DNA from: an uncultured Desulfohalobiaceae bacterium
GTDB lineage: Bacteria; Desulfobacterota; Desulfovibrionia; Desulfovibrionales; Desulfothermaceae
Direction of reading: 5' to 3'
DNA: 54,466 nucleotides
NCBI GenBank assembly: GCA_964621385.1
Contig: CAZUMF010000001.1
Location: 1 to 54,466 of the forward strand
This document shows positions 11,379 through 44,585 of this stretch, one piece after another. Position 1 is the first letter of the stretch. Every line of letters begins with the position of its first letter. Made by a program: the position numbers and the translations under genes. A model generated the notes under the pieces. It was not told the DNA's origin, searched no databases, and was given only the letters and a program-made list of their open reading frames with translations.

Positions 11379-12044
11379 CTATGAGGTTGTATTCCGTTCA
11401 TTGTTCGTGCGCCCCAGCTGAAGCCCTACCAGGATTGTGCCCACACCTTTTTCATTGACCCCTTTGAAATACTTTGTTTTCAAGAAATTGTCCGTCAGAG
11501 TGGACGGGTTGGCAAAAATAACGGCATTGAAGTTTATTAGATGGTTTTTTCCTTCCAGCCTGCACCACTCTGCGGGCAGACAGGGGGTATCAAAATAACA
11601 GGTTTTATCCATCAATTCCTTGGGAAAAGACATTCTGTCCTTATAAATGACAAAACACTCATGCATGAACCAGACGTTTTCTTGGCTTGACAACTTCGAT
11701 CGATCCTCTTCATCCCGCACCTCCTCCCCCACAACTTCATCACCTTTTTTCAATACGAGGCTCGGTAAACGGCCCCAGTCAAAATCCATATTTGTCAAGC
11801 CAACAACGATGTGTGTACACTGGAGGACTTCTCGTAAACCGCTGTTGAAGACTTTGCCCAATCCCATGAGACTTCTCTTTTCCGATTCAGTTTCAATCTC
11901 AAGTATTTTTTGGTGGTCTTCATCCAGGAGGAAAGCAGCCCCGATAATCCCCTTGCTGTTCTGCAAGGCACGAAGTAAGATATCGCTCAAAGAATCATTA
12001 TCCATCATTCCTCCAGGCAAGGTCTTCAGAGATAAAGACCTCAC
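11379..12044 (-). CDS. hypothetical protein coupled to ramA
   Basis: 221-aa ORF whose GTG start overlaps the ramA stop (GTGA). I recognise no domain. Ends in TAG. Confidence 0.4.
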   Translation of the reverse strand: MRSLSLKTLPGGMMDNDSLSDILLRALQNSKGIIGAAFLLDEDHQKILEIETESEKRSLMGLGKVFNSGLREVLQCTHIVVGLTNMDFDWGRLPSLVLKKGDEVVGEEVRDEEDRSKLSSQENVWFMHECFVIYKDRMSFPKELMDKTCYFDTPCLPAEWCRLEGKNHLINFNAVIFANPSTLTDNFLKTKYFKGVNEKGVGTILVGLQLGRTNNERNTTS

Positions 12045-13720
12045 GCCGTGATCAAACTATTCCAGCTAAAGACTTTTTCTTCACAGATCGCCTCGCATCT
12101 CTTACAGGCAATCCCATTGCACAAACCCAACTCTATGGAAATCTCGAAAAGATTCTCTCTTTCCTCCAGTTGAAGCGCCTTTTCCGGACATTCCTCAACA
12201 CAGAGGGCACATCCGATGCATCCAGAAAAAAGAATCTGTTTCTCCTGGCCAATGTCCTCAATGATTCGTAACCCATGAATTCCGGTATCGGCTATGTCTC
12301 TTTTCACCTTTTTGAAAATTTCAACACGGTTGTCTGTTTCTTTCAATCGCGGCAGGCCGAACTTTTTCAGGAAATGCTGGTACTGTCCGTAGGTCATCCC
12401 TTCAGTCCAAAAAGATAATTCCAGGATATACACTTTCTCAAAGACCTTGGATTCGGCGAACATACAATGATGTTGCCTCAGTTGATCCGAAACCCGCTGC
12501 ATGCGGAGGAGTTCATCCTCGTTTTGCAGCAAATCCCTGGCCATGGCCAGGGAGGTGTTCCCCACCTGATAGATCTTTGTTGCTCCGGCCGGAATCAGTC
12601 CCACGTCTTTGGCCTTCAGAGCATCCACATACGTTCCTGAAGCGCCTGACATATAGACTGTCCCGATCTTCTCCAAACCGATGCCCGCTTCATGACACAA
12701 GGCCATATGACCGGCGCGCACCGCCCCAAAAGCCTTTCCGGCTTCAATCACATCTTTGGAGTGAAACCTGACGCTGTTTGGCAAATAAATGTATCCATCC
12801 CTGGTGGCAATTTTTGGAAGCTGAATGAAACCATACTCCATGCCCTGGCTCATGAGGGCGATGACCCCGGTCCCTGTGATACCAACTGCCCGTTCTCCTT
12901 TGTGAAAGAGCTCACCAGTATTCGGGTCAACCGTATCGCCAGGATAGGAAAGCATGTCCTTGCCGAGAACATAGGTTTTCAGCCAACCAGAGACGGATTG
13001 ATCATCCTGATTTTTCCCTGCCGGCCGAGTCTTGGACTCCTTGGCTTCAAAGTCGACATCCGAAATGGCTCCAGGGAGCGCCAGCAGTCCGTCCCCTATC
13101 TGTTGCCCTTCCAAGGCCGGCCCGGCCGCCGTAGACCCTGAGTAGACCCTGCCGTTTGCGATCAAAGCCATTTCAGCATTGGTCCCATAATCAGTGGCAA
13201 TCGCGATTTCATCTTTTTCCAGCATGCCGGTTTGGATCATCATGGCCAAAGCGTCGGCCCCGACCTCATGCCTCACAGCAGGAGGAATCAAGACATCGGC
13301 CTTCGCCGGCAGGTCAAGTCCGCGTATCTGTGAGGTTTTGAACAATCCTCCATCCCTGTTGGGGGGGGTGACTCCCAAGGCCTGGAGTTTGCGTTTCCCG
13401 GCATAGGCCAGATCTCGTATCTCAATTTCCTGAAACAGGGACAGCTGAATGGGGTTTCCGCATACCGCCAGTTTGACAATCGACTCTTTGGCGACACCCA
13501 TGTTTTCAATTAGCTTATTAACGGCCTCCACAACAATCTCGTGGGTCCATTGCAGCCCAACTTCAACAGCGCAATGGAGATGATCCATGACATTGGCCCC
13601 CGGCAAAGGATGACGGGGGGTAACGACGGTCGAAAGGATCAATCCATCCTGCTCGAGATCGACTGCCTGCCCCCTGAATCCACTGGTTCCCAGATCCAAA
13701 GCAATACCAATCTTTGGCAT
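12041..13720 (-). CDS. ramA: methylamine methyltransferase corrinoid protein reductive activase, RamA type
   Basis: 559-aa ORF. The N-terminus IALDLGTSGFRGQ...LAVCGNPIQLSLFQEIEIRDLAYAG...TDYGTNAEMAL closely matches my recollection of Methanosarcina RamA. The C-terminus has two ferredoxin-type Cys clusters (CIGCALCVEECP, CNGIACKRCEAICE). Confidence 0.85.
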   Translation of the reverse strand: MPKIGIALDLGTSGFRGQAVDLEQDGLILSTVVTPRHPLPGANVMDHLHCAVEVGLQWTHEIVVEAVNKLIENMGVAKESIVKLAVCGNPIQLSLFQEIEIRDLAYAGKRKLQALGVTPPNRDGGLFKTSQIRGLDLPAKADVLIPPAVRHEVGADALAMMIQTGMLEKDEIAIATDYGTNAEMALIANGRVYSGSTAAGPALEGQQIGDGLLALPGAISDVDFEAKESKTRPAGKNQDDQSVSGWLKTYVLGKDMLSYPGDTVDPNTGELFHKGERAVGITGTGVIALMSQGMEYGFIQLPKIATRDGYIYLPNSVRFHSKDVIEAGKAFGAVRAGHMALCHEAGIGLEKIGTVYMSGASGTYVDALKAKDVGLIPAGATKIYQVGNTSLAMARDLLQNEDELLRMQRVSDQLRQHHCMFAESKVFEKVYILELSFWTEGMTYGQYQHFLKKFGLPRLKETDNRVEIFKKVKRDIADTGIHGLRIIEDIGQEKQILFSGCIGCALCVEECPEKALQLEERENLFEISIELGLCNGIACKRCEAICEEKVFSWNSLITA

Positions 13721-13900: not shown

Positions 13901-14236
13901 CTATTTCCGATTATGCTGTAAAAGTGAACCATAATGCCGCTTGAAACTGGTGGAAGAATATTTACTCATTTTCCAGTCCGGGACTTTGCACTTTTCACAA
14001 GGTTTCGTAAACCACTTATTTCTGAGCCACCGAGCACCACGGCTGTTTTTTGAATTGTTGACCATGAATTGCATGTTGCAATGAGTGGTGATCCAGGCCT
14101 GTTCTCCTTTCTTTTCGATAGTTCTGATTCCATGAAGGACACCTTTCCGAGAAGGCCAGAGCTTGATTTTGTCAATAAGGCTGAAGAGCTCGACCCTCTT
14201 TCTGTAATACCTCTTGGCTGGTTCACATTTAACCAT
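13901..14236 (-). CDS. pylSn: PylSn, stand-alone N-terminal (tRNA-Pyl-binding) domain of pyrrolysyl-tRNA synthetase
   Basis: LWPSRKGVLHGIRTIEKKGEQAWITTHCNMQFMVNNSKNSRGARWLRNKWFTKPCEKCKVPDW aligns with the N-terminal domain of archaeal PylS (LWMSRTGTIHKIKHH...[28 protein letters not shown]). The ATG at 14236 overlaps the pylD stop (ATGGTTAA). The track ORF start at 14413 is an out-of-context extension. Ends in TAG. Confidence 0.8.
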   Translation of the reverse strand: MVKCEPAKRYYRKRVELFSLIDKIKLWPSRKGVLHGIRTIEKKGEQAWITTHCNMQFMVNNSKNSRGARWLRNKWFTKPCEKCKVPDWKMSKYSSTSFKRHYGSLLQHNRK

Positions 14237-14881
14237 TGGCAATTCTGACCAACATGGTTGCGGTTCCGATCTGCAATGGATCGTGTAAAATCCTCGATCC
14301 TGCTTCAGTGATCCCCTTTTGATCCAGACCAAGGGGCATGCCCGGAGCAGCAATGAACATCTCCCGGGAAATAACTTTGCCAGGGATGACTCCCGCCGCA
14401 TTCGTGGCTTCAAAGACCAATCGGCTCTGCTCCAAAGCTTTTTCCAAATGCTGAGTTATTGGAACCTCCTTTGAACTGATACTGCTCAGTTGTTCAGAAG
14501 CAGTTCGACTCTTGGTCCGGTCCAGATCGTACAGGGAGACATCGGCAAAATTGGGCAATCACTTTTTTTCCTGATTGCTTCCCCCAGTCCGCCAACATCT
14601 GTCTCATGGGCTACAAAAGCCGGACAACCTAAATATGCAGCGATCGAACAGACGGCTTCTGAAAAACCTGGAAGCGAACCCTGACCACTGGTTATTGGTA
14701 TAACAGCTGTGTGTAGGGTGGTCGAAAAGAATGGTGCATGCCACCTGCAAGTACGCGATTTTTCTTTACCCGGCTCTGGATTATCAGACTGATTCCTGAG
14801 CTATTTTTCAAATTGACTAATCAATCTTTTTAATAATTCCAGAATAATACAAAGAAGGTTTTTAACACTTCTTCCTTTCAT
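14229..14881 (-). pseudogene. pylD: pylD (3-methylornithyl-N6-L-lysine dehydrogenase), apparently disrupted
   Basis: The C-terminal frame (14229..14558) reads FEATNAAGVIPGK...PLQIGTATML, like the PylD C-terminus. A different frame upstream (14561..14881) reads AVIPITSGQGSLPGFSEAV...DVGGLGEAIRKK, like the PylD N-terminal domain. The two frames need a 1-nt correction near 14545..14563. An in-frame TAG lies at 14801..14803 with no start codon after it. No GxGxxG loop is visible, and the total is ~217 codons. Confidence 0.65.
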
Positions 14882-15034: not shown

Positions 15035-16048
15035 TCAGTGTTTCTGAGCCACTTGCAACATGGCCAGAAGATTTTCCATAGGTGTTCCAGGGGAGACGGC
15101 GCATCCGGGTGCAAGGATCTGGATACCTTTGGAGATGGATTCCTCGGCCTCTTTAGTGACGACATCCGGTTCTTTGAGGAACAAGGTGTTGGTGACATCC
15201 ACCCCTCCCATCAAAACCATGTCCGGGCCACATTTTTCTCTGGCGAATTGGACATCAGCCTTTGGTTCAAGGCTCAAGGCGCTTGTTCCTGTCTGGCCCA
15301 TCTGCTCAACGATAACATCAACCTTCCCACAGATATGAAGAATAGTTGGAACAGAAATGGCTGCAAACTGCTTGCTTTCATATTCCAGCACAAGATCCCC
15401 AAAGGTTTTGGGAGCCATTAGGTCTGGAGAAGCGGTCATATCTTCGCAACTGATGATATCCGCACCGGCTTCAATCAGGGCTTTGGCCAGAGCTGTGCCC
15501 GCCTTTTCTGCCACATCGAGAAAGGGCCGCAGCTTCTCCGGCTTCTTATAGGAGGTTTTCAGCAGGGGAACGGTGTCTATGAGATGGCCGGCAATCGAGA
15601 AAGGACCGACGATTCCTGCTACAATCGGAACTTCGTCGCCGAGTTCCTTCTTCAGGATTTGAACCGCCTTCAGGAGTTCGGGAATTCGCCCTCTGGACAA
15701 AAAATCATCCGGAAAGCTCGGAGTGTCCTCCAATTTATAAGGTGGCGGATGATCGATGCCCGGTATCCCCTCTCCCTGTCTGGTCTTCCCCGGTTTGACC
15801 TTACATCCGAGCGCTTCAGCCTCAAATGTTTGACAAAAAGGGAGTCTCACCGCGTCAAATCCAAGCACGGTATGGTTGGCCAGGGCCAGTTTGGCCATGG
15901 GTTCGGCTTTTTCATGCCCTTCAGGCCAGAAGGCTTGCACCTTCTCCATCTGATCATAGGTGACCAAACTATTGGCTGCGAAGCAGGGCATACGGTCCGG
16001 TTTCTCATGCTGCATGACTGCCATTACCCGTTGTTTTGCATTCATCAT
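15035..16048 (-). CDS. URO-D family methyltransferase, MtaA/MtbA-like (MT2-type), copy 2
   Basis: 337-aa ORF that is URO-D/MtbA-like throughout (RLPFCQTFEAEALGC, ILHICGK). Confidence 0.8.
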   Translation of the reverse strand: MMNAKQRVMAVMQHEKPDRMPCFAANSLVTYDQMEKVQAFWPEGHEKAEPMAKLALANHTVLGFDAVRLPFCQTFEAEALGCKVKPGKTRQGEGIPGIDHPPPYKLEDTPSFPDDFLSRGRIPELLKAVQILKKELGDEVPIVAGIVGPFSIAGHLIDTVPLLKTSYKKPEKLRPFLDVAEKAGTALAKALIEAGADIISCEDMTASPDLMAPKTFGDLVLEYESKQFAAISVPTILHICGKVDVIVEQMGQTGTSALSLEPKADVQFAREKCGPDMVLMGGVDVTNTLFLKEPDVVTKEAEESISKGIQILAPGCAVSPGTPMENLLAMLQVAQKH

Positions 16049-23383: not shown

Positions 23384-23444
23384 GGGGGGACTGTTGAGTT
23401 CAACGCCATGTTTGACAACTGTAAATGAAAACAGGAGGAAGTGT

Positions 23445-24917
23445 ATGCGACGCAATCTGCACGCCGGGAAACGACCCAACAGGGGGCTGCGCTTTGAGGT
23501 TTTCAGTGCTGACGACCTTGAAGACATCCACTTCGCCACCCTGGAAATCCTTGAAAAGACAGGGTTGTATTTTGCGGATGACCAAGCTCTGGAGATCCTG
23601 CATGGAGCCGGGGCTGTGATCGACAAAACCAGGAAGGTGGCCAAAATTCCCCCTTACGTGGTGGAAGAGGCCATCAGGTCGGCCCCTTCAAAGCTGGTTC
23701 TGGCCGGGCGCAATCCTGAAAACGACTTTGTCATGGAGGGCGGCCGGGTCGGTTTCACCAATTTCGGGGAAGGGGTCTTCATCAATGATCCCTATAGCGG
23801 CGAACACCGCAAAACCACCAAGGCAGACGTGGCTTCTTCCGCCCTGCTGGCGGATTACCTGTCTGAAATCGATGTCTATGAACGGGCCGTGGGCGCTGAA
23901 GACACCCCGGCTGCATCCGTTCAGTTGCACAATGCCGAAGCCTGGATGCCCAATACCTCCAAACACGGGTTTATGGGGCCTGGCAACGGCTACCTGCTGC
24001 ACAAGATCGTGGACATGGCCGCGGCAGCTGCTGGGGGGAAGGACAAACTGCAAGAGCGGCCCCTGGTCAGCTTTATCACCTGCCCGGTCAGCCCCCTGAA
24101 ACTGGAAAAGGACACCTGCGAGATCATCATGGAGGCGGCCCGTTCCGGGATGGCGGTCAACATCCTGTCCATGGCCATGGCCGGTGGTTCCTCACCCGTG
24201 ACCCTGGCCGGGACCCTGGTGGACCACAACGCCGAAATCCTGGGCGGCATCGTCCTCAGCCAAGCCACCCGCAAAGGGGCCAAAGTCGTTTACGGCAGTT
24301 CGACCACAGCCATGGATCTGCGTTTTGCCGCGGCCATGGTCGGCTGCCCGGAATGCGGGGTCATCAACGCCGGCGTGGCCCAGCTGGCCCGCTACTATCT
24401 TTTGCCCAGCTGGGTCGCGGGCGGGTAGGGCGACAGCAAGGTTTGCGATGCCCAGTCCGGTCATGAAAAAACCATCACTGGCCTGTTACCGGCGTTGGCA
24501 GGTGCCAACCTGATTTACGGCCTGGGAATGATCGAAATGGGCATGACCATCGATTACGGCCAACTGGTCATGGACAATGAATTCGCCAGAATGATCAAAC
24601 ATGCGGTCCAGGGGGTCCCGGTGAGTGACGAGACCCTGGCCGTAGAGGTCATGCGGGAGATCGGCATTGGCAAGGACTACCTCAGCCATGAACACACGTA
24701 CCGCCACATGAGGTCCCAGTCCCAGTCCCAGTTGATCGATCGCAGAACCCGGGAATACTGGGAAACCAATGGGGGCATGGATATTTTCCAGCGCTCCATG
24801 GAGCAGGCCAGATACATCCTGGAACATCACCGACCCGAGCCCATTGCAGACAGCGCTTTGGCTGAAATACGCCTGATTGTCGAGGAGGCTGAAAAAGAAC
24901 TGGGGGTTGGGCAGTGA
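23445..24917 (+). CDS. mttB: trimethylamine:corrinoid methyltransferase MttB with an in-frame UAG (pyrrolysine) at 24426..24428
   Basis: Track ORFs 23394..24428 and 24495..24917 share a frame and are separated only by TAG. The joined product is 490 aa, MttB-like throughout. SD aggagga lies before ATG 23445. Terminates in TGA. Confidence 0.9.
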
Positions 24918-25063: not shown

Positions 25064-25194
25064 CAGCGTCGCTTCCGATTCCAATAGCGAACATGCTCTT
25101 GGCATTGCAATGTCATAGTATTTACGACTGCGTGTACTAAGTTTCAGCACAAAACAGCATTCAGGTATCAAAATCCAGGTCTTAGGAGGATAGC

Positions 25195-26589
25195 ATGGGA
25201 AAGATCCGAACCCGTTTTGGTGACGGTTTTCCGCTTGAGCTCAGCTCAAAGGAACTCCGTCAGGATTTGGAGGAAGGCACTGCCGAGGCTGCGGACAGGG
25301 GGTCCATCGCCACGCTGGCAGAAGATGAGCTGCGCCATCTCGAGGATATTTTCACCTCAGCCCACCGTTTTATCGGCGTCGAGCCTGGAAAGGAAATCAT
25401 CCTGAGCTATGACGGGGCCCCTTTGAAGATGAAACGGGCCCAGGTCAATGTGGACCGGGTTCAGGCCCTGCAGATCTATGAAAAACTTCTGGGGGCGGAC
25501 ACTCTGGAATTGGCGCATGTCGATTACAGCTATAAGCCGGTCAAGCCGATTGTCACCTTTGAACAGCCACTGCTGGAACAGGTCTTTTCCGTGACCACGG
25601 CCCCGGTTTTTTACGGAGCCATGCCCAACTTAGGCCTTTACAGCCAACCGGACGGACCCTTCCCCAATCCGGCTGAACTCCTGCCTCTGGGCAAAATCAA
25701 GGAAGCCCGGGAAGCATCCGAGGCTGCGGTGGAGAATGCGGTCAAGGATATCGTCTATATTGGCAGACGCATGATTGAATCCGGGGCTGACGGGATCAAT
25801 CTCGACACGACCGGTGCTGCTGGTGACGCGGATTTTCAGGCCGCTCTTCTGGCCACTGAACAACTCAGGGCCAAATATCCCACGGTCTGCATTGAACTGG
25901 GCATGTCCGGGGAGTTTGTCCTTGGCATGCACGGTGGGTTGACCTATAAAGGGGAGCGTCTGGCCCTGATGTATCCCCACCAGCAGGTTAAAATGGCCGA
26001 AGCGGCCGGGGCGACCATCTTCGGCCCGGTCGCCAACACTAAGCCCAGCCGGTCGGTTCCCTGGAATCTGGCCAGGACAACGACCTACATGAAGGCCTGC
26101 TGCGAAGTGGCCACGATCCCTGTTCATCCGAATATGGGCATGGGGGTCGGCGGCATGCCCCTCACCGATCATCCGCCGCTTGATGTGGCCTCCAGAGCTT
26201 CCAAGGCGATGGTGGAGATCTGCCGGCTGGATGGGTTGTAGGTAGGGGTCGGCGATCCCATGGGTATGGCCATCACACATGCCGTTGCTTCGGGAATGGG
26301 CGGAATGAGGACAGCCGGAGATCTGGTTGCCCGCATGCAGATGACCCGGGGCATGAAAATCAAGGAAGCCAAAGCGCATGTGGCCGGAAAACTGAAGTGC
26401 TCGGTCTCTGATCTGACCGACCCGATCCTCATGCAAGAGGCCAGGGACGAACTCAAACTCGGGGTTCTCCATCCCTACGCCGGTTCTCCCAAGTGCATGG
26501 AGGCCAAGTTCAACATCGCAGCCCTTTTAGATATCGACATCAATTGCGTGAACCGTTTCCGCAACAATCTCAACCCAGGCTCGCTGTAA
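25195..26589 (+). CDS. mtbB: dimethylamine:corrinoid methyltransferase MtbB with an in-frame UAG (pyrrolysine) at 26239..26241
   Basis: Track ORFs 25195..26241 and 26260..26589 share a frame and are separated only by TAG. The joined product is 464 aa. The context [20 protein letters not shown] is as in MtbB. Terminates in TAA. Confidence 0.9.
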
Positions 26590-26614: not shown

Positions 26615-28051
26615 ATGCAGCCGAATCATTACGACATGCTCTCCCTTGAGGATGTGCAGCAAATCCATGATGCGTCCCTTCAGGTCCTGCAACAAACTGG
26701 ACTGGCAGTGGACCATACGGGCGCCAGACAGATTCTGGCTGATGCGGGCGCTGCGATCGAAGCCAGGGGCAATCGGGTCTTCATTCCTGCGGATCTGGTC
26801 GAATCAGCCCTAGCCAAGGCCCCGAAAAATTTCATTTGCGCCGGGCGAAGTGCGGAATACGACATGTTGGTCAGCAGCGACCAGTCCCATGCGCCTGTTG
26901 CCCGGAGCGTGGGAGGGCCTTTGAATTGTTTCGATTTTTCAAGTCATCAATCCCGCCAACTCACGATCCATGACTGTGCTGATCTGGCCCGCATGGTCGA
27001 TGCCCTGCCCAATCTGAATATCTGCGGCGGGCTATCTCCTCAGGATATTCCACAACAAACCTATGACATTGAGACCTTAAAGGTTTTATTGGAATATGGA
27101 AGAAAACACATCTGGGCCTTGACCACAGGATCCGCGAATCTCAAATATCAGCTGGAAATGATGGAAGTGGTCAGCGGCGGCAAGTTCGAACTGCAGCAAA
27201 GGCCTATCTGCAGCGGCATCGTCTGTCTCATCGAGCCCCTCCGCTTTCCCAGAGACGAAATCGAGAGGCTCCTGCTCTATGGTCGCTACAACCTCCCGGT
27301 GCGCGTTCCGCTCGTACCCATGGTCGGGGCCAATTCGCCCTACACCCTGGCTGGGACCATGGTCCAGACCAATGCCGAAGCCTTGGGAAGTCTGACTATC
27401 CTGCAAACCCTCTGTCCCGGCATTCCAACCTGGTACTACGTGATTATGGAGACCATGGAGATGCGCAAAGGATCCATGCAGTTGTTCAACCCTGAAGTCC
27501 TGCTGATTCTCAATGGCTTGTACCAGATGGCCCGCTATTATCAGCTTCCTGCGGTTGCTTCAGCCTTGATCGGCTCCAACTGCCAACCCCAGCAGATCAT
27601 GTTCGAACGCGGCACGAGCCTGTTCTTAACCGCATTGGCAGGGGTGAGCGAGATAGGCGGCGTGGGTGGTGTGGGCAATGGCATGATGATCAGTCCCCAG
27701 CTCCTGGCCATAGATAATGAAATGATCGCCTTTGTGAAACGTTTTCTCGAAGGATTTGAAATCAGTACTGACACCTTGGCTGTAGATGTCATCAATCGAG
27801 TTGGACACAGCGGGAAGTTTCTGGAAGACATACATACCCTGACCCATTTACGCAAAGAGATTCGTTTCAGGCCGAATCTGTTTGACTGGCGACCCTTTGT
27901 GGAACAGGGGACAGATGAAAAAACCATCTATCAACGCGCCCAGGAAACAATCGAGGCCATCCGTAAGGACCATGAGGTGGAGCCTCTGGAAGCGGAACAG
28001 CAAAGAGAACTCCACACCATCCTCTCAGCAGCTCAGCGAGATCTATTGTGA
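26615..28051 (+). CDS. MttB-superfamily methyltransferase without pyrrolysine (quaternary-amine-type paralogue)
   Basis: Uninterrupted 478-aa ORF that is MttB-like from the N-terminus (LSLEDVQQIHDASLQVLQQTGL) to the C-terminus, with no in-frame TAG. Confidence 0.85.
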   Translation: MQPNHYDMLSLEDVQQIHDASLQVLQQTGLAVDHTGARQILADAGAAIEARGNRVFIPADLVESALAKAPKNFICAGRSAEYDMLVSSDQSHAPVARSVGGPLNCFDFSSHQSRQLTIHDCADLARMVDALPNLNICGGLSPQDIPQQTYDIETLKVLLEYGRKHIWALTTGSANLKYQLEMMEVVSGGKFELQQRPICSGIVCLIEPLRFPRDEIERLLLYGRYNLPVRVPLVPMVGANSPYTLAGTMVQTNAEALGSLTILQTLCPGIPTWYYVIMETMEMRKGSMQLFNPEVLLILNGLYQMARYYQLPAVASALIGSNCQPQQIMFERGTSLFLTALAGVSEIGGVGGVGNGMMISPQLLAIDNEMIAFVKRFLEGFEISTDTLAVDVINRVGHSGKFLEDIHTLTHLRKEIRFRPNLFDWRPFVEQGTDEKTIYQRAQETIEAIRKDHEVEPLEAEQQRELHTILSAAQRDLL

Positions 28052-28511: not shown

Positions 28512-29156
28512 ATGGACAAGAACGAGTATTTGGAGAAGGCCTCAAAAGCGATTCTAGAAGCTGATGAGGAAGAGGCCGTGAAATTAGCAGAAGCGTATTT
28601 GGAGGAGGGACTTGATCCAACGGAAATGATCGAGAACGGTCTTTCCGCCGGGATCATGAAGCTGGGAGATCTCTTTGACCGGGGAGAAGTCGTGCTTCCT
28701 CATGTCATTATTGCCTCCGAGGCTATGACAGCTGCGGTAAAAATTCTTGAAAAGGGTATGCCTGCTGAAGAAAAAGGGAAAAAAAAGGCAAAGGTCGTTT
28801 TGGGCACTGTGGAAGGGGACGTGCACGATATCGGCAAAGGCATTGTATCAACCATGTTAAAAGTCTATGGGTATGAGATTTTTGATCTGGGACGGGACGT
28901 CCCCATCGAGGAGTTTGTGGAAAAAGCCAAAGAAGTCAAGGCCGATGTGGTTGGTTCCTCGGCCTTGATGACGACCACTCAGGCCGGACAAAAAATCCTG
29001 GAAAAATCATTGAAGGAGGCTGGGATTCGAGAAAACATCAAAACCATGGTCGGTGGAGCGGCCACCACGGATCACTGGGCCGAAAAGATCGGAGCTGATT
29101 TTTGGGCTGAGAACGCAAGTGATACAGTGATGAAGCTGAATGAAATTTTTGACTAA
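28512..29156 (+). CDS. mtbC: corrinoid protein (MtbC-like by position)
   Basis: 214-aa ORF with a cap domain and a B12-binding domain carrying [10 protein letters not shown]. It lies 14 nt upstream of mtbB copy 2. The symbol is assigned from adjacency only. Confidence 0.85.
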
Positions 29157-29170
29157 CAGGAGGTGAAACT

Positions 29171-30571
29171 ATGGCCAAACACCTGACCAGACGGGGTGAC
29201 GGGGCATTCATTGAGATGAGCGCCGGCGAAATCATGAGAGACTTGGAGGAAGGGACTGCAGACGCTGCAGACAGGGGGAAAATCCCCCCTCTTTCTAAAG
29301 AAGAACTGGAAAAACTTCGAGATATCTTTTGCGATCCGGCCAAGTTTGTCAGCGTGGAACCGGGCAAAGAAGTGCCGCTGACTCATGATATCGGCACCTT
29401 GCGAGTGATGGGCGACCAGGGAAACAGTGGCGTTGGAATCCCCTTGAGCCGTGTTCAAGGCATCCAGGTGCACGAAAGGGCACTGTGCGCCGATACCATG
29501 GAGTTGGGGCATATCGACTACAGCTTCAAGCCTGTCAAACCGGTCATTGCCATGGAACAACAGGAGTTGGAAAACGCTTTGTTGTCTACGGTTCTGCCGC
29601 TCTTTTACGGAGCCATGCCCAATCTCGGGACGTACTATGAGCCCGACGGACCTTTCGGAAATCCTTCGGATTTGCTGCCAGCAGGCAAAATCAAGGAGGC
29701 TTACGCAGCTCAAGAAGGAGCAGTGGAACACGCAACACGAGACATGATCTTTGTCAGCGAAAAACTTGCAGAAGTCGGTTGCGATGGGATCAACATCGAC
29801 ACGACAGGGGCTGCCGGCGACACAGACTTTAAAGCCACCCTGCACGCTGTTGAACATCTCAAAAAGCATACGAAAATGTGCATTGAGGTTGGTATGGCGG
29901 GCGAATTTGTCCTGGGGATGCATGGAGGCCTCGAATATGACGGGAAAAAGCTCCATGGACTGTATTGCCATCAACAGGTAGAATTGGTTGAGAAATCAGG
30001 TGCGGATATTTTTGGGCCAGTGGTGAATACGAAACCGAGCAGATCCATGCCTTGGAATCTGGCCAGGGCGGTCACATTCATCAAAAAAACTGTGGAAACA
30101 TCCAATATCCCCATCCATGTGAATATGGGTATGGGGGTCGGCGGTTCACCTGTATTTGAGACCCCTCCCATTGACTCTGTGAGCAGGGCCTCCAAGGCGA
30201 TGGTGGAAATAGCCGGCGTAGACGGGTTGTAGGTAGGTGTGGGAGACCCCATGGGGATGTCTATAGCTCATGCAGTGGCAGCGGGAATGGGTGGAATCAG
30301 GACCGCCGGAGACCTGGTGGCCCGCATGCAGATGACCCGCAAGATGCGGATCAATGATGCAAAAGCCTACGTTGCCGAAAAGCTTCAGTTGTCCCCATTT
30401 GACCTGTCAGACGTCCACGTAATGAGAGAGGTCCGCGAGGAGCGAGACATCGGAATCATTACTTCAGTCCCAGGTTGTGCCAAGGGAATCGAGGCCAAGG
30501 CTCGCATCGCCGAGTTGCTCGATATCGAGATTGCAGGGGTAACGCGTCTCAAGGAAAAAATGAAACTGTAA
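29171..30571 (+). CDS. mtbB: dimethylamine:corrinoid methyltransferase MtbB (copy 2) with an in-frame UAG (pyrrolysine) at 30230..30232
   Basis: Track ORFs 29171..30232 and 30239..30571 share a frame and are separated only by TAG. The joined product is 466 aa. [45 protein letters not shown] matches my recollection of Methanosarcina MtbB. Terminates in TAA. Confidence 0.9.
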
Positions 30572-30595
30572 ACAAAACAAGACAACCCAAGTGAC

Positions 30596-30692
30596 ATACC
30601 AGCAGTTGGCACCGACAGCGCTTTTGCATGAGTCTTCACCGCAGGCTTCAACGGAGATGTATGACCTGTTGGTTTGGGCCAACTGCTGGTAT
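30596..30692. repeat. 15-bp perfect inverted repeat with a 67-nt spacer
   Basis: ATACCAGCAGTTGGC (30596..30610) and GCCAACTGCTGGTAT (30678..30692), in the noncoding gap after mtbB copy 2. Confidence 0.6.
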
Positions 30693-30893
30693 TGAATAAA
30701 ACGCCTGGGAGCGAGAGCACATTCTTCTACCTCGGTTTCTCTGAGCCTTTGTGCAGGCTCATCTTAAGCAAATCTTTCAGAAAAAATAGAGAGCGAGCCG
30801 TTGACACATTGCATCACTCCCTGAACGGACAAGATCTACTCCTTGAACTTATAAAGAGGCGCAACCACACTTCATGACGATGAACCCTACCCT

Positions 30894-31454
30894 ATGAGAA
30901 ACGATAGCTCCGAAAAAGAATTGACACACGCTCTCAAAGAGATGGCCAGCAAACACAATGTAAAGCTTTTTTCCTATGATGTGCAGCAAATAAAGCCTTC
31001 TGAGAGTATCCGGCTCAAATGTCAAGTGCCGCTTTGCGAGTACTACGGGGTCTGCAAAGTCTGTCCTCCACATATCCCGAGTGTGGAAGAATTCAGAAAA
31101 ATACTGAAAGATTACACGCAATGTTTTCTGGTTGTCTTTCAGGAAGATATAGATAATATTGCCCTCTACCGCCACGACTACCGGGCAGAATTGAAACTGG
31201 CAGAAGCAGTGTCTGAGTTGGAGAATACTGCCTTTGTGCACGGAGAATACATGGCCTTGGGTTTGACAGTTGGCGGCTGCAAATTATGCAGCGATTGCAC
31301 CGCTGCCGGTGAACCGTGCCGGCATCCTTTCAAGGCCCGTCCCAGCCCAGAAGGATTTGGCATTGACATTACCAGGATGGCACGGGAAGTTGGCGTGCCT
31401 GTGGAATGGCCCCCTCGGAAAACGGTCAATTTCATAGGTCTTGTTCTCATATGA
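30894..31454 (+). CDS. DUF2284-like Cys-rich metal-binding protein (copy 2)
   Basis: 186-aa ORF with CQVPLCEYYGVCKVCPP and CKLCSDCTAAGEPC motifs. Paralogous to 966..1592. Confidence 0.6.
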   Translation: MRNDSSEKELTHALKEMASKHNVKLFSYDVQQIKPSESIRLKCQVPLCEYYGVCKVCPPHIPSVEEFRKILKDYTQCFLVVFQEDIDNIALYRHDYRAELKLAEAVSELENTAFVHGEYMALGLTVGGCKLCSDCTAAGEPCRHPFKARPSPEGFGIDITRMAREVGVPVEWPPRKTVNFIGLVLI

Positions 31455-31584
31455 TCAATCTCTCAGATCATTTACCCCACAACTGATATCAGCAATTCAC
31501 TCAGATATGATCCCTGTTTATTGTTTCAGCAGAACCTTATCATCTCCCCTCTGAAGTGGGAAGTTCCTGAAAGGAGACCCATAC

Positions 31585-32568
31585 ATGGCTCGGCATTCAG
31601 CTTTTTCATCAGATATGAACACGATACACAGCAACGTGTCTCAGGAGGTTGTTGGCAGAAAAACTGAAATTCAATTGATACTGACTGCTCTGCACGCTGG
31701 AAAACACATCCTGCTTGAAGGGCCTCCAGGCACATCCAAATCTACTTTACTCCGGGCAATCGCCAAGGAAACAGGCATGCCTTTCTATATCGTAGAGGGG
31801 AATATCGATCTGACACCCGCCAAAGTTGTTGGTCATTTCAACCCATCAGGGGTCTTGAAAGACAGCTACCAAATGGAACACTTTGAACAGGGCCCCCTGA
31901 CCAAAGCCATGCTGGAAGGGGGAATCCTTTACATTGAAGAGTTCAACCGTATGCCGGCTGATGTTTCCAACGTGCTCATTTCACCCATGGAAGAAGGAGA
32001 AATTTCCATCCCCAGATATGGAAGCATCACAGCGGTTCCTTCATTCACCGTTATTGCAGCTCAAAACCCCTATGATGACGTTGGAACCGTCAGGGTCAGC
32101 AAAGCCTTCATGGACCGAGTTTGCTTAATCAAAATGGAATACCAGAACAAGGAGGAGGAACAGGAGATTGTTAAACGCCGAACCGGGGTGCTGCATCCTG
32201 ATATCACTGGTTTGGCCGTTGACATGGTCCGCAGGACAAGAGAGCATTCTGATCTTAAGGTCGGCGCATCAGTTCGGGGAGCCATTGACATGGTTGATCT
32301 CCTGACCGGCCTCCTGCAAATGGACAACCGGATCGAGCACAACCTTCTCCTGGCGGCCCGTATGGCTTTATCCAATAAGATTTGGCTGAGTGAAATGACC
32401 GAAAAAAATACAGACGAGATCGTTGAGGAAATCCTCGAAAGTCTCAAGCTTCAATTTACTGATTTGATCAAAAGCAATGAACCACTTCCCCCTGAATCAC
32501 TCCAAACGGACACCGATGATGACCTCCCTTCTGAAACAGGACAGGCAAAAAAAAAAGCAGCCATGTAG
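31585..32568 (+). CDS. MoxR-like AAA+ ATPase
   Basis: 327-aa ORF with Walker A LLEGPPGTSKST, Walker B-like ILYIEEFNR and MoxR/CbbQ/CobS-like architecture. Ends in TAG immediately after an A10 run. Confidence 0.8.
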   Translation: MARHSAFSSDMNTIHSNVSQEVVGRKTEIQLILTALHAGKHILLEGPPGTSKSTLLRAIAKETGMPFYIVEGNIDLTPAKVVGHFNPSGVLKDSYQMEHFEQGPLTKAMLEGGILYIEEFNRMPADVSNVLISPMEEGEISIPRYGSITAVPSFTVIAAQNPYDDVGTVRVSKAFMDRVCLIKMEYQNKEEEQEIVKRRTGVLHPDITGLAVDMVRRTREHSDLKVGASVRGAIDMVDLLTGLLQMDNRIEHNLLLAARMALSNKIWLSEMTEKNTDEIVEEILESLKLQFTDLIKSNEPLPPESLQTDTDDDLPSETGQAKKKAAM

Positions 32569-32621
32569 GAGAACAATTTCTTGATCCCAAACAGGACACC
32601 CAGTACTCTTACTTCTACCGT

Positions 32622-33425
32622 ATGGCCTCCTACCTGAATGCTCATCCTGAAAAGCTCCCGGATTTTTTTGAGCAGCAAGATGCTCTTGAGATGTTCGCAA
32701 ATGTGTATGGCATGCTGAAACAGAATGTCCGGAATCTTGCTGTCAAACTTGCCAGTCGGCTCATCATCAAAATTGCAAAGCAGATTGCTGATACTGGATA
32801 CCGTTCCGGCAAACTGAAACTGGTCAAGGGTTGTGCAGATGGAGCCGAATTGGAATTGGACAGGAGTCTGGAACGATATACTGAGGAACCGGAAATGGGT
32901 ATTGCTGACTGTTTAATGTCACTTACCAGGTATAAGGAACGTGAAGCTTTTGTCATGATATTTGACCGCAGCTATTCAATGAGAGGTATGAAAATCATCC
33001 TTGCCGCTATTACCGCAGCCTCAATTGCCAGACATTTCAGAAGAAATTATGCGATCCTTGCCTTCAGCAATGATGTCTCCGTTATCAAGGGGATCGATTC
33101 CACAGACGGACCCGAGACCATTCTTGAACGATTGTTTGCCTTGACGCTACAAGGAGATACGGACATTCACCAGGCTCTGGAAAAAGGCCTGGCCCATATC
33201 AGAAAATTTGAACGAAAACGTGGTCTTATCCTCACGGATGGGGCTTGGAACCGAGGAAAGAACCCTCTCTCAGTCGCTGGTCGCTTTGACAAGCTCAGTG
33301 TGATCGGTTTTCCACCGGCCAACATGGATAAAATCAGACCATTAGCCTTGAAAGGTCAGGGTGAACTCTCCTTTGTTGAAGATGAAACCACAATCGGCGG
33401 AGCCATCCTCAAGTCACTAAATTAA
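32622..33425 (+). CDS. von Willebrand factor A (VWA) domain protein, partner of the MoxR ATPase
   Basis: 267-aa ORF with a MIDAS-like DRSYSMRG motif. There is no SD before ATG 32622, and its frame stays open for 29 codons upstream, into the end of the ATPase gene. Confidence 0.7.
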   Translation: MASYLNAHPEKLPDFFEQQDALEMFANVYGMLKQNVRNLAVKLASRLIIKIAKQIADTGYRSGKLKLVKGCADGAELELDRSLERYTEEPEMGIADCLMSLTRYKEREAFVMIFDRSYSMRGMKIILAAITAASIARHFRRNYAILAFSNDVSVIKGIDSTDGPETILERLFALTLQGDTDIHQALEKGLAHIRKFERKRGLILTDGAWNRGKNPLSVAGRFDKLSVIGFPPANMDKIRPLALKGQGELSFVEDETTIGGAILKSLN

Positions 33426-33460
33426 CGTATCACACGATAGTTCGAATCGCAGGGGGAACG

Positions 33461-34555
33461 ATGCACACAACCTCAACATATCTTTCTACCATTCTTGAAA
33501 AGGCAACAAAAGGTTCAAGAATTTCCCGTAAGGAGACGACGTATCTGTTGTCGCTGAGAGACCCCGAAGCCATCCAACGAGTGATATCGACCGCCCGTGA
33601 CGTTTGCCGGCAGAACTTTGGGAACAGTGTTTTTTTATACGGGTTCATCTATTTTTCAACATATTGCCGCAATCAATGTGCTTTTTGCTTTTATCGGCAA
33701 TCCAATACCCGCAGTCCGCGGTATCGGAAAAACCTGGACGAAGTGGTGCGTACAGCCTGTTATCTGGTTGATTCCGGGGTTCATCTGGTTGACCTGACCA
33801 TGGGTGAAGATCCCCTGCTTCATGAATCGGGTTTTCAAAGGCTTCTCCAGATTATAGCCCGGATAAAACAGAAAACAGGCATTCCCATCATGGTTTCCCC
33901 GGGTGTCGTGCCCGACGATCTGTTCAAGGAGTTTACGAAGCTTGAGGTTGACTGGTATGCATTGTATCAGGAGACGCACAACCCGACACTTTTTCAGAAG
34001 CTGCGGATCAATCAGGACTATGAGATCCGGAACAAGAAAAGAATCACAGCTCAGCAGGCCGGCATGCTCGTCGAAGACGGGATACTGATAGGAATCGGGG
34101 AGAGTGTTGCTGATCGAGCAGATTCAATCATGACCATGAAACGCAGCCTTTTGGATCAGGTTCGAGTCATGAGCTTTGTGCCCCAACCTGAAACTCCCTT
34201 GGCCAGAACACATACCTTACCCAGAATCAATGAAATCTTGTGTATAGCCGCGATGCGTCTGGCTATGCCGGATCAACTGATCCCAGCTTCCTTAGATGTA
34301 GACGGATTGGAAGGACTCAAGATGCGCTTGGAAGCAGGAGCGAACGTGGTCACTTCGATCATTCCTCCCAGCAATACGTTAGCCGGTGTCGCCCAAACTT
34401 CTCTGGATGTGGAAGAAGGCCGACGCTCGGTGCGTGAAGTGACGAAAATTCTGTCTCAGATGGATCTGGTCCCTGCCAGCAGAGAGGACTATGAATACTG
34501 GATCAAAGAGAGGAAAAAAACACAGCCCACGTCCTTGGAGGTGATCATGACCTAA
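33461..34555 (+). CDS. pylB: PylB, radical-SAM 3-methylornithine synthase
   Basis: 364-aa ORF. FGNSVFLYGFIYFSTYCRNQCAFCFY, VDLTMGEDP, ALYQETHNPTLFQKLR, VEDGILIGIGES, VRVMSFVPQPETPL and LIPASLDVDGLEGLKMRLEAGANVVTSIIPP track my recollection of Methanosarcina PylB block by block. Confidence 0.85.
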   Translation: MHTTSTYLSTILEKATKGSRISRKETTYLLSLRDPEAIQRVISTARDVCRQNFGNSVFLYGFIYFSTYCRNQCAFCFYRQSNTRSPRYRKNLDEVVRTACYLVDSGVHLVDLTMGEDPLLHESGFQRLLQIIARIKQKTGIPIMVSPGVVPDDLFKEFTKLEVDWYALYQETHNPTLFQKLRINQDYEIRNKKRITAQQAGMLVEDGILIGIGESVADRADSIMTMKRSLLDQVRVMSFVPQPETPLARTHTLPRINEILCIAAMRLAMPDQLIPASLDVDGLEGLKMRLEAGANVVTSIIPPSNTLAGVAQTSLDVEEGRRSVREVTKILSQMDLVPASREDYEYWIKERKKTQPTSLEVIMT

Positions 34556-34704: not shown

Positions 34705-35760
34705 TCAAGCCGAACGGCTTCTTTCATGATCGTATTCTCGAACCGCCTCGACCATGGCTCGAATGTTGACCGTGGGAGTCTCCGGTGGAACACCGCAGCT
34801 TGGCTCGATGAAATCAGCGCCATCTTCGATCGATTTTTTAACTTCTGCCTTGACTTCTTCCAGAGATCCCGAGACGAGTGTTCTTTTGGAACTGATGGTT
34901 CCCAATATTTTGACATCACCGACGATGGGCTTTATCCTGCGGATATTGACCGATTCGTCAACGCTGATGGCATCATAGCCGCAACTTACTAAAAACGGAA
35001 CCATCGACTCAACTTTTCCCCCGATATACAACATGCGCAGACCACCAAGGCTCTCTGATATTGTTATAAGAGCCGGTTTTATAATCTCATTCAAAGATTC
35101 TTTCGTTGTCAACACAGGTGTTAAGGCACCATCAGCGACCGTCACGATGTCTGAGCCGCTTCTATATTGCGCTTTTGCGAATTGAATGATAATAGAAGTT
35201 GCAAAGTCGATGAGTTTCTTGAAGGCTGCGGGATCCTTCAAGGTCATCATGGACAGGGACTCAAGACCGATCAATTCGCCAGCCAGGGTGAAAGGCCCGA
35301 CGACGTGGCTCGAAATTGGCAGATAGTCACCCACCTCATCTCTCGCCCTTCTAATCGCTTCGAGTACAACAGGAACACGGCCCATCTTCAAAAAGCCTTC
35401 CGGTTCTTTCATTTCCCCTGGGTCTTTATAAGGATGCTCGATGACTACCGGATAGAAATGCATCTTTTCCTGATAATGGACAGGGCATCCCAGGGCCTCG
35501 GCCTCGATCACGTTGTCAAAGGGAATCTTGACGTTCTCAATCCCTCCGATTTCGTAGGCCGCGATGGCTAGCTTGGCCATCTGCCGAGTATCCCTGAGAG
35601 CATCCGGCCAGGTTAACCCTGTCTCACGCTGCATCTCGACATTCACAGCCCCGCAGCAGCCAGTCAGGGAGGTAACCGGGGGAGTCTTTCTCTGTTTTCC
35701 CAACAACGCTTGAAAAACTCTCTGTTTTGGGCTCAATTCCATAATCTGTTCCGGGTGCAT
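34705..35760 (-). CDS. URO-D family methyltransferase, MtaA/MtbA-like (MT2-type), copy 3
   Basis: 351-aa ORF that is URO-D/MtbA-like (IPFDNVIEAEALGC, MLYIGGK). Confidence 0.8.
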   Translation of the reverse strand: MHPEQIMELSPKQRVFQALLGKQRKTPPVTSLTGCCGAVNVEMQRETGLTWPDALRDTRQMAKLAIAAYEIGGIENVKIPFDNVIEAEALGCPVHYQEKMHFYPVVIEHPYKDPGEMKEPEGFLKMGRVPVVLEAIRRARDEVGDYLPISSHVVGPFTLAGELIGLESLSMMTLKDPAAFKKLIDFATSIIIQFAKAQYRSGSDIVTVADGALTPVLTTKESLNEIIKPALITISESLGGLRMLYIGGKVESMVPFLVSCGYDAISVDESVNIRRIKPIVGDVKILGTISSKRTLVSGSLEEVKAEVKKSIEDGADFIEPSCGVPPETPTVNIRAMVEAVREYDHERSRSA

Positions 35761-36034: not shown

Positions 36035-36769
36035 TTAGATTGGGGAATGCCCATTTCCATTCTTCTTGGCAATCACCAGGGTCCAATAGTCCGGAGGCAT
36101 CATCTCCAGATCACGAACATTGGTGATAATTTGCTCCTTGTCTCGACCGCACCTGGATATGGCCATGCTGTATTCCAAAAATCCGGTTTCCTCCATGGCA
36201 TCATTGATATCTTTGGTGTTCCGATAGGCTTTGAACAACACCACATTCTCGACACACTGCGAAATATTTCGCAATCTCTCTCCACCAAGAGCCCCGGAGG
36301 TGATGACGAGGGACTCCTCGTCCTCAACCAGAACCGTATTCAAACGTGCCGCCACCGCCTGTGGAGTACAAATTCCCGGAATGGTTCTGATCCTGGCTAA
36401 TGGATCCAAGTCCTGCAACTGCTTCAATATATACCCATAGGTAGAATACGTCATTGGGTCCCCTAAGGTCAAGAAGGCGACATCCAGGCCTTGGTCCATT
36501 TCGCGCTTCAAGGCCCTGGCATTTTCCCGCCAGGCTGGGTACGTCACTCGCTTGTCTTTGGTCATGGGAAAATCAAGGAGTCTGACTTCAGTGTCTCCAT
36601 CAATGTATGGTTTGGCAATGGTCACCGCCAGGCTGTGCTGATTTTTACTCGAAGAAGCCGCGAAAATGACGTGAACGATCTCTAACGCCTTGACGGCCTT
36701 CAAGGTGATCAGCTCAGGATCACCCGGCCCCACCCCTATGCCGTAAAGGGTGCCCTTTTTCATGTTCAT
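36035..36769 (-). CDS. cbiL: precorrin-2 / cobalt-factor II C20-methyltransferase
   Basis: Tetrapyrrole methylase signature GTLYGIGVGPGDPELITLKA and FLTLGDPMTYSTY. The start is taken at the MNMKKG ATG after gaggtga. The track ORF extension to 36943 runs into the terminator and riboswitch. Confidence 0.85.
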   Translation of the reverse strand: MNMKKGTLYGIGVGPGDPELITLKAVKALEIVHVIFAASSSKNQHSLAVTIAKPYIDGDTEVRLLDFPMTKDKRVTYPAWRENARALKREMDQGLDVAFLTLGDPMTYSTYGYILKQLQDLDPLARIRTIPGICTPQAVAARLNTVLVEDEESLVITSGALGGERLRNISQCVENVVLFKAYRNTKDINDAMEETGFLEYSMAISRCGRDKEQIITNVRDLEMMPPDYWTLVIAKKNGNGHSPI

Positions 36770-36842
36770 AATCACCTCGTCCTGAATTAAACATTGACCG
36801 CAGTTACGACAATATTTGATCTTCCCTTTTCCTATCACCCCC

Positions 36843-36880
36843 AAAAAAAAACCGGATCGAATAGCGCTTATTCGATCCGG
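36843..36880 (-). terminator. intrinsic terminator (riboswitch expression platform)
   Basis: On the minus strand, CCGGATCGAATA-loop-TATTCGATCCGG (12-bp perfect stem) is followed by T9. It lies between the riboswitch and cbiL. Confidence 0.75.
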
Positions 36881-36944
36881 GGATTTCCCTTTTTTATCCA
36901 CCATGATCAAATGAGTTTCCAACCTCGGGAAACCATCATCCATG

Positions 36945-37140
36945 TTCAGGCAGGTCTTCTGACTTACGGATCGCCCTACTTGCCCGGTTGAAAAGATTCT
37001 TCAGAGAAATATCAACCAGGCTCACCGCCCCTTCCCATCGGATGTTTTCCAACAGTGGTTCTTTGCGGTTTTCGTCACCGATTACAGCCGCGGGCCGGTC
37101 CCTGAGTCGCACAGGGTTCCCTTTTTCGCTCCTATCGAGC
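36945..37140 (-). promoter_or_regulatory. cobalamin (B12) riboswitch
   Basis: The minus strand reads AAAAGGGAACCCTGTGCGACTCAGGGACCGGCCCGCGGCTGTAATCGG ... GAACCACTGTTGG ... GATGGGAAGG ... AGAAGACCTGCC. This parallels the E. coli btuB leader blocks (AGGGAA-UCCAGUGCGAAUCUGGA-GC..CGCAGCGGUAAGG, B12 box CACUG, GGGAAG, GAAGACCUGCC). Confidence 0.8.
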
Positions 37141-37187
37141 ACCTGAACACATCACATATCAATGAATCGCCTTATTCCTCCAAAGAT

Positions 37188-44450: not shown

Positions 44451-44585
44451 TTTCACACCTCCTTTTCTTTTGAGATTGACTGTTTTGTCTTGTAATGTTT
44501 GTTCCTGATCTGTCATCACCTCCTTCATGAGTCAGGTTGTGCCAGCATACAGCCAAGCAAGAGACTCAGGAATCGAATGTTCCTT

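Follow-up and report, generated by a model that had tools for sequence, protein, structure and literature searches.

The stretch of DNA analysed here (the window) comprises 54,466 nucleotides (nt) of contig CAZUMF010000001.1, from an uncultured Desulfohalobiaceae bacterium (GenBank assembly GCA_964621385.1). It carries two genes of the MtbB (dimethylamine methyltransferase) family, each broken by one in-frame TAG, and the first of these, mtbB copy 1 at 25195..26589, is the subject of this analysis. The frame is 465 codons long including the terminal TAA (26587-26589); its sole internal stop, the TAG at 26239-26241, is codon 349 and is predicted to specify pyrrolysine (Pyl). Counting the UAG position, the product of the joined frame has 464 residues. 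The constituent open reading frames (ORFs), 25195..26241 (348 amino acids (aa) plus the TAG) and 26260..26589, have starts that lie 1065 nt, or 355 x 3, apart and are thus in frame with each other. The preliminary description of this DNA had reported two ORFs in one frame with only a TAG intervening, a TAA end and a 464-aa product, and its coordinates and peptide context are confirmed. On a rough estimate that assumes equal codon frequencies, the chance of finding a 115-codon extension open past a stop is (61/64)^115, or ~0.004. The ATG at 25195 is preceded by a Shine-Dalgarno-like AGGAGGA (Table 1); the ATG at 26260, which begins the second ORF, has no ribosome-binding site comparable to it.

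Both parts of the frame match the profiles of the MtbB family, and they do so end to end. In PF09505 (Dimeth_PyL), the N part (348 aa) covers positions 4-353 (464.6 bits) and the C part (115 aa) positions 355-462 (152.8 bits, E = 1.5e-44); in TIGR02368, the MtbB equivalog, the N part covers positions 7-355 and the C part 357-465. The single profile column that the two parts leave uncovered, 356 of TIGR02368 and 354 of PF09505, is the site of the TAG. When the TAG is written as X, the joined protein fits TIGR02368 in one unbroken stretch, residues 6-458 on profile positions 7-465 of 466, at 484.5 bits (the curated equivalog cut-off is 369.1 bits). The N-terminal frame of an archaeal MtbB, from Candidatus Methanomethylophilaceae, ends at the same alignment column as the TAG of copy 1; the comparison with archaea was made through curated hidden Markov models, Rfam and this one named N part. 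At E <= 0.01, the joined protein had no counterpart among the PDB sequences. On the evidence as a whole, 25195..26589 is most probably a single gene that encodes a pyrrolysine-dependent [dimethylamine--corrinoid protein] Co-methyltransferase (MtbB), a reading to which we assign a probability of about 0.88.

The TAG column, the codons beyond it and the RNA

A scan of bacterial and archaeal species-representative genomes yielded at least 575 MtbB-encoding stretches, and the analysis used the best 80 (79 loci). All of these are bacterial. Their hosts are mainly Desulfobacterales, Desulfohalobiaceae and other Desulfobacterota metagenome-assembled genomes, together with the Olavius delta-1 symbiont, the cultured Desulforhopalus singaporensis DSM 12130, Dehalococcoidia, a spirochaete and a Hyphomicrobiales genome. 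TAG occupies the homologous column at 78 of the 79 loci, where the surrounding motif reads LDGL-TAG-VGVGDP, and TAA or TGA never occurs there; in the protein alignment, both window copies counted, 80 of 81 sequences have a stop in this column. The sole TAG-less locus (L005, JAFDAT010000283.1, 2160..3527) carries TCG (Ser) in place of the Pyl codon, with altered flanking motifs (LDGL to LVGL and GDP to GDL); it is a copy in decay or else a variant without Pyl. A full-length MtbB homolog without a stop is also found in a JGI metagenome (P0142, 463 aa, 37% identity): it has Trp at the Pyl column (VDML-W-ATTGDP) and may represent a non-Pyl MtbB branch, analogous to the non-Pyl relatives of MttB. 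What looked like a truncated mtbB at one locus (L082) was ruled out as an assembly gap, a run of N.

The break at this column recurs throughout the protein database. Of the 120 best listed matches to the N part, more than 100 are exactly 348 aa long, all 120 listed matches to the C part are stand-alone fragments of 104-120 aa, and the downstream part as a whole has 2462 matching database proteins. A search of 1.84 billion representatives delimits a compact family of 423 representatives, in which full-size N parts measure 353-356 aa and all end at the same column; one cluster of this family carries a name, [dimethylamine--corrinoid protein] Co-methyltransferase of Candidatus Methanomethylophilaceae archaeon.

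Purifying selection acts on the 115 codons after the TAG. Compared with eight relatives, they change mainly at third positions, as do the 348 codons upstream; relative to the homologous locus L003, differences at codon positions 1, 2 and 3 number 24, 10 and 74, and the codon changes comprise 53 synonymous and 26 non-synonymous. The six VGVGDP codons (26242-26259), which separate the TAG from the first possible start of the second ORF, are almost invariant in 87 sequences. Neither of the two refutations that the preliminary description had named was borne out: the TAG does sit at the MtbB Pyl column, on which the uncovered profile column, the UAG of the Rfam model described below, the end of the archaeal frame and the protein alignment agree, and the downstream codons are homologous to MtbB, for which the PF09505 match, the matching database proteins and the third-position bias speak. 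In about 24 of 78 homologous mtbB genes (L002-L080; ~30%), the true terminator, ~112 codons past the Pyl TAG, is also TAG, so that one codon is read two ways in the same mRNA.

The first 100 nt from the TAG onward match the Rfam model of the mtbB PYLIS element, RF02509, far above its gathering score of 36, with the consensus UAG of the model aligned to the window TAG at 26239. The high score mostly reflects conservation of the coding sequence. Across 87 homologous 100-nt segments, pairing holds in only 71.8% of the cells of helix 1, where three base pairs fail in most sequences; in helix 2 (columns 73-92) the figure is 91%, and a single pair, 75-90, covaries. Within 26309..26332, the synonymous sites of the segment GCC-GGA-GAT-CTG-GT are invariant or nearly so in the 87 mtbB sequences (third-codon positions 81 and 87 are invariant), whereas other third positions vary freely, and the segment can fold into a 6-base-pair hairpin with an AGAU loop. 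It is plausible that this hairpin, 70-93 nt past the UAG, is a real structure.

The methylamine-use island and its pyrrolysine genes

The contig is a methylamine-utilisation island that codes for all three Pyl-dependent methylamine methyltransferases (Table 1): MttB for trimethylamine, MtbB for dimethylamine and MtmB for monomethylamine. In addition to mtbB copy 1, four genes have a single in-frame TAG at the Pyl position of their family and end in TAA or TGA. All five are otherwise intact, with no second stop and no frameshift. The two mttB genes are ~52% identical to each other, and the motifs that flank Pyl are identical between mtbB copies 1 and 2. At the TAG of mtmB, a match to the Rfam PYLIS_1 model begins (53.2 bits, below the gathering score of 70); relatives of this gene with 85-89% identity lie on two metagenome contigs (L100 and L162). 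TAG ends six of the 44 window genes (TGA ends 21 and TAA 17) and therefore still serves as an ordinary terminator on this contig.

Table 1. Positions and assignments of features in the window
Feature	Position	Strand	Basis and remarks
mtbB copy 1, coding sequence	25195..26589	+	464 codons via one UAG, TAA end; PF09505 and TIGR02368
In-frame TAG, codon 349, predicted Pyl codon	26239..26241	+	profiles, Rfam, same column in 78/79 loci
Shine-Dalgarno-like AGGAGGA, 6 nt 5' of ATG 25195	25182..25188	+	sequence cttaggaggatagcATG
Rfam RF02509 (PYLIS_2, mtbB) match	26239..26338	+	model positions 1-100, 86.4 bits
Small conserved hairpin, plausible, 70-93 nt past the UAG	26309..26332	+	core GCCGGAGAUCUGGU; alignment columns 71-94, helix 2 pairing
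mttB, TAG 24426-24428	23394..24917	+	directly upstream of mtbB copy 1; Rfam PYLIS_3 match
mttB, TAG 43467-43469	42972..44528	-	Rfam PYLIS_3 match
mtmB, TAG 46620-46622	45843..47240	-	PF05369 positions 2-195 and 208-449
mtbB copy 2, TAG 30230-30232	29171..30571	+	58% identical to copy 1; TIGR02368 647 bits
MttB-superfamily gene without Pyl (Leu at Pyl column)	26615..28051	+	25 nt 3' of mtbB copy 1
Corrinoid protein (MtbC-like)	28512..29156	+	TIGR02370 246.3 bits (cut-off 215.3)
ramA, ATP-dependent reductive activase of methylamine corrinoid proteins	12041..13720	-	TIGR04270 732.1 bits (cut-off 500)
MtrH/MtgA-like methyl-corrinoid:pterin methyltransferase, candidate second-step enzyme	7386..8339	-	NF002142 276.9 bits; NF047990 MtgA 153.9 bits
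MtaA/CmuA-family methyltransferase, alternative second-step enzyme	15035..16048	-	paralogs 2097..3143 and 34705..35760
pylB (methylornithine synthase), intact	33461..34555	+	TIGR03910 457.1 bits (cut-off 348.2)
pylSn (small N-terminal subunit of pyrrolysyl-tRNA synthetase), intact	13901..14248	-	TIGR03912 127.9 bits (cut-off 51.15)
pylD remnant, frameshifted and internally deleted	14229..14725	-	profile 50-101 and 170-265 in different frames

Corrinoid proteins are encoded at 28512, 44586, 47251 and 6638 (the last by an eye reading of its translation). The MtbC-like protein of 28512..29156 is likely to be the methyl acceptor of the methyltransferase; it scores 248.8 bits against the MtbC equivalog NF041607, below the cut-off of 350, and in related loci its orthologs (61-65% identity) come directly after mtbB of the copy-1 type. 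Many related loci have mttB immediately before a copy-1-type mtbB, often with an MtbC-type gene behind it, and many genomes hold at least two divergent mtbB copies side by side. In the window, the MttB-superfamily gene without Pyl (TIGR02369 360 bits, below the cut-off of 525) separates copy 1 from the corrinoid gene that usually follows copy-1-type mtbB elsewhere. Also on the contig are a RACo/AcsV-like activator, CobW and ABC transporters. The 1146-aa AcsV/RACo-like corrinoid activation protein of 3187..6627 (- strand) is interrupted at about residues 347-824 by a GltD-like NAD(P)/FAD oxidoreductase module and, judging by this architecture, could couple pyridine-nucleotide oxidation to corrinoid reduction. 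A precorrin-2 C20-methyltransferase-like gene (36035..36943) is preceded by a cobalamin riboswitch (36932..37161, - strand, 98.6 bits). In a scan for promoters and terminators between 21000 and 35000, the number of promoter-like sites did not depart from the range of shuffled controls, which had more terminator-like sites than this region.

Of the Pyl machinery, pylB and pylSn are present and intact, the latter with 56-62% identity to PylSn of other loci. The gene pylB ends a block on the + strand (28512..34555) that runs mtbC - mtbB copy 2 - DUF2284 - MoxR/GvpN-type AAA ATPase - VWA protein - pylB; the order is kept in at least five metagenome contigs (L085, L086, L097, L100 and L116), and in two others (L093 and L133) the block is common as far as VWA, beyond which the sequence ends or no pylB match follows. 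We know of no described link between the MoxR-VWA pair and pylB or mtbB. The pylD remnant lies immediately upstream of pylSn and ramA; nothing separates MtaA from RamA in the closest metagenomic relatives. An inversion between the MtaA paralogs as the cause of the separation of pylB from pylD-pylSn is ruled out by the direct orientation of these paralogs. Elsewhere in bacteria the pyl genes occur in the orders pylB-pylC-pylD-pylSn-mtbB or mtbB-mtbC-pylB-pylC; the nearest metagenomic relatives of the window have MtaA-RamA-mtbC-mtbB2-DUF2284-AAA-VWA-pylB, with the other pyl genes elsewhere, and related Desulfobacterota contigs have their pyl genes dispersed between methyltransferase operons.

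The established archaeal system provides, by analogy, each step of a putative mechanism. The UAG at 26239-26241 would be decoded by Pyl-tRNA(CUA), charged by PylSn together with PylSc, the Pyl itself presumably being made from two lysines by PylB, PylC and PylD. In the active site, Pyl349 would bind and orient dimethylamine, and a methyl group would pass to the Co(I) of the MtbC-like corrinoid protein. From the corrinoid, the MtrH/MtgA-like or the MtaA-like methyltransferase might transfer the methyl group to a pterin or thiol carrier, for entry into C1 oxidation; RamA would return corrinoid oxidised to Co(II) to the reduced state. Without Pyl-tRNA, translation would be expected to end at the UAG and to leave an inactive 348-aa fragment. 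One speculation about this scheme, to which we give low odds, is that the hairpin past the UAG could be a functional RNA element that, in bacterial and archaeal mtbB alike, tips the balance from termination to Pyl insertion; a second possibility, held no more firmly, is that the five intact UAG genes, despite the local decay of pylD, rely on pyl genes dispersed or located elsewhere in the genome.

Known MtbB systems and other readings of the locus

The MtbB1-3 proteins of Methanosarcina barkeri were reportedly described by Paul, Ferguson and Krzycki in 2000 as dimethylamine methyltransferases with an in-frame amber codon. Copy 1 is like them in belonging to the same family (above the cut-offs of TIGR02368 and PF09505), in having its UAG on the same profile column (as judged through the profiles), in its match to the Rfam mtbB PYLIS model and in having an MtbC-type corrinoid protein and RamA for partners. 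It differs from them in its bacterial host, in its ~45-50% identity to archaeal-type N parts, in a deletion of 6-7 residues near residue 86 and in the carrier that takes up the methyl group further down the pathway, probably a pterin here, given the MtrH/MtgA-like gene, in place of coenzyme M. MttB and MtmB likewise use one UAG-encoded Pyl in a corrinoid-dependent methyltransferase, and both are represented in the window with a UAG of their own; unlike MtbB, they belong to other Pfam families (PF06253 and PF05369) and gave no match to MtbB in the searches that were run. MttB also has many non-Pyl relatives, whereas the non-Pyl variants of MtbB that were seen are rare (the Trp protein P0142 and the Ser locus L005).

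Copy 1 falls inside a large clade dominated by Desulfobacterota; its nearest relatives among the best 80 are two metagenome-assembled Desulfohalobiaceae genomes, at 77% identity. Six Pyl-MtbB genes, and no Pyl-MtmB, were found in 2007 in the Olavius algarvensis delta-1 symbiont, a deltaproteobacterium (Zhang & Gladyshev, PMC1976440). This symbiont belongs to the same clade: a locus assigned to 'Olavius sp. associated proteobacterium Delta 1' (L012) is 71% identical to copy 1, has TAG in the same column and, like the window, has tandem mtbB copies beside mttB and a corrinoid gene; the difference is that the window carries a UAG-containing mtmB. Among marine Deltaproteobacteria with a dual selenocysteine and Pyl code expansion, most possess several Pyl-mttB genes and also encode a dimethylamine methyltransferase that has Pyl in frame (Kivenson et al. 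2021, PMC8318568); the window contig, with two Pyl-mttB and two Pyl-mtbB genes, shows no essential difference from these genomes. The remark in the preliminary description that mtbB is much less commonly reported in bacteria than mttB needs correcting: bacterial mtbB is not rare (at least 575 stretches in the bacterial and archaeal representatives, the best 80 all bacterial) and has been in print since 2007 (PMC1976440, PMC8318568). Pyl-MtbB in deltaproteobacteria is already published, and copy 1 is a further example.

Several facts weigh against reading the locus as a functional, Pyl-dependent dimethylamine enzyme. Translation past the UAG and insertion of Pyl there are inferred from the sequence, and structural support for an RNA element past the UAG is weak. 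The pylD remnant lacks profile positions 1-49 and 102-169, ~115 in all; within the 54-kilobase contig, no pylC and no pylSc were found, and ARAGORN, Rfam and a custom cloverleaf scan detected no tRNA-Pyl(CUA) gene (pylT). With the local pylD broken and pylC, pylSc and pylT not on the contig, the capacity of the organism to decode UAG can only be inferred, and it would rest on parts of the genome beyond the contig. The same facts, along with the use of TAG as an ordinary terminator in six of the 44 window genes, are what would be expected if there were no read-through, the UAG acting as a stop, the Pyl machinery decaying or absent, and a dead or dying gene giving a truncated 348-aa product. We consider this very improbable. 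Five UAG methyltransferase genes on one contig are otherwise intact, as are pylB and pylSn, and the codons downstream of the TAG are under purifying selection; since the pyl genes are scattered in related Desulfobacterota contigs, their lack on a single contig is weak evidence of absence. Another way of dispensing with recoding, that the 348-aa polypeptide and a 109-aa polypeptide started at ATG 26260 assemble into an enzyme, corresponds to the way in which gene callers list the two parts in public databases, as separate proteins, and has next to no likelihood: ATG 26260 is without a ribosome-binding site, and a separately initiated C-terminal protein would lose the invariant VGVGDP, whose codons precede any start of the second ORF and would stay untranslated. 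Start codons past the TAG are not conserved (the calls of the C-fragment ORF range from 104 to 120 aa), and the exclusive use of TAG as the stop in 78 loci, with no TAA or TGA, is expected for Pyl and not for a simple split.

The substrate of copy 1 is a different question. Its proposed specificity for dimethylamine comes from family membership, because, to our knowledge, no bacterial MtbB has been biochemically characterised, and copy 1 shares only 45-50% of its residues with archaeal-type N parts and 58% with copy 2. That the clade of copy 1 consists of Pyl-containing paralogs, which would apply the same Pyl and corrinoid chemistry to some other methylated amine and leave copy 2 as the true dimethylamine enzyme, is unlikely, and yet it has more in its favour than either of the readings that dispense with Pyl. 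Beyond this distance between the copies, copy 1 lacks a segment of 6-7 residues (SGVGIP) that copy 2 and archaeal-type sequences possess, scores 484.5 bits on TIGR02368 as against 647 for copy 2, belongs to a large bacterial clade of its own and is directly followed in the window by a non-Pyl MttB-family gene; the maintenance of at least two divergent, adjacent mtbB copies in many genomes points the same way. Copy 1 is nevertheless still above the curated equivalog cut-off, the motifs around Pyl are the same in both copies, and related loci usually flank mtbB with mttB and an MtbC-type gene, an arrangement that fits the stepwise demethylation of trimethylamine.

Annotation of the gene and what the island adds

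The main bearing of this locus is on annotation. Gene callers split genes of this kind into a 348-aa protein and an orphan fragment that is left uncalled or is sometimes mislabelled; two stand-alone C-terminal MtbB fragments (P0345 and P0366) carry the JGI labels 'urocanate hydratase' or 'hypothetical protein'. The C-terminal ORF of the window is not among the matches listed, the best of which is 90% identical to it, and it is therefore probably uncalled in the source record. As a consequence of such splitting, genome surveys underestimate the use of methylamines by sulfate-reducing bacteria. What is known of pyrrolysine or of MtbB is left unchanged by this contig; it adds a further, rather divergent bacterial island with all three of the Pyl methylamine methyltransferases.

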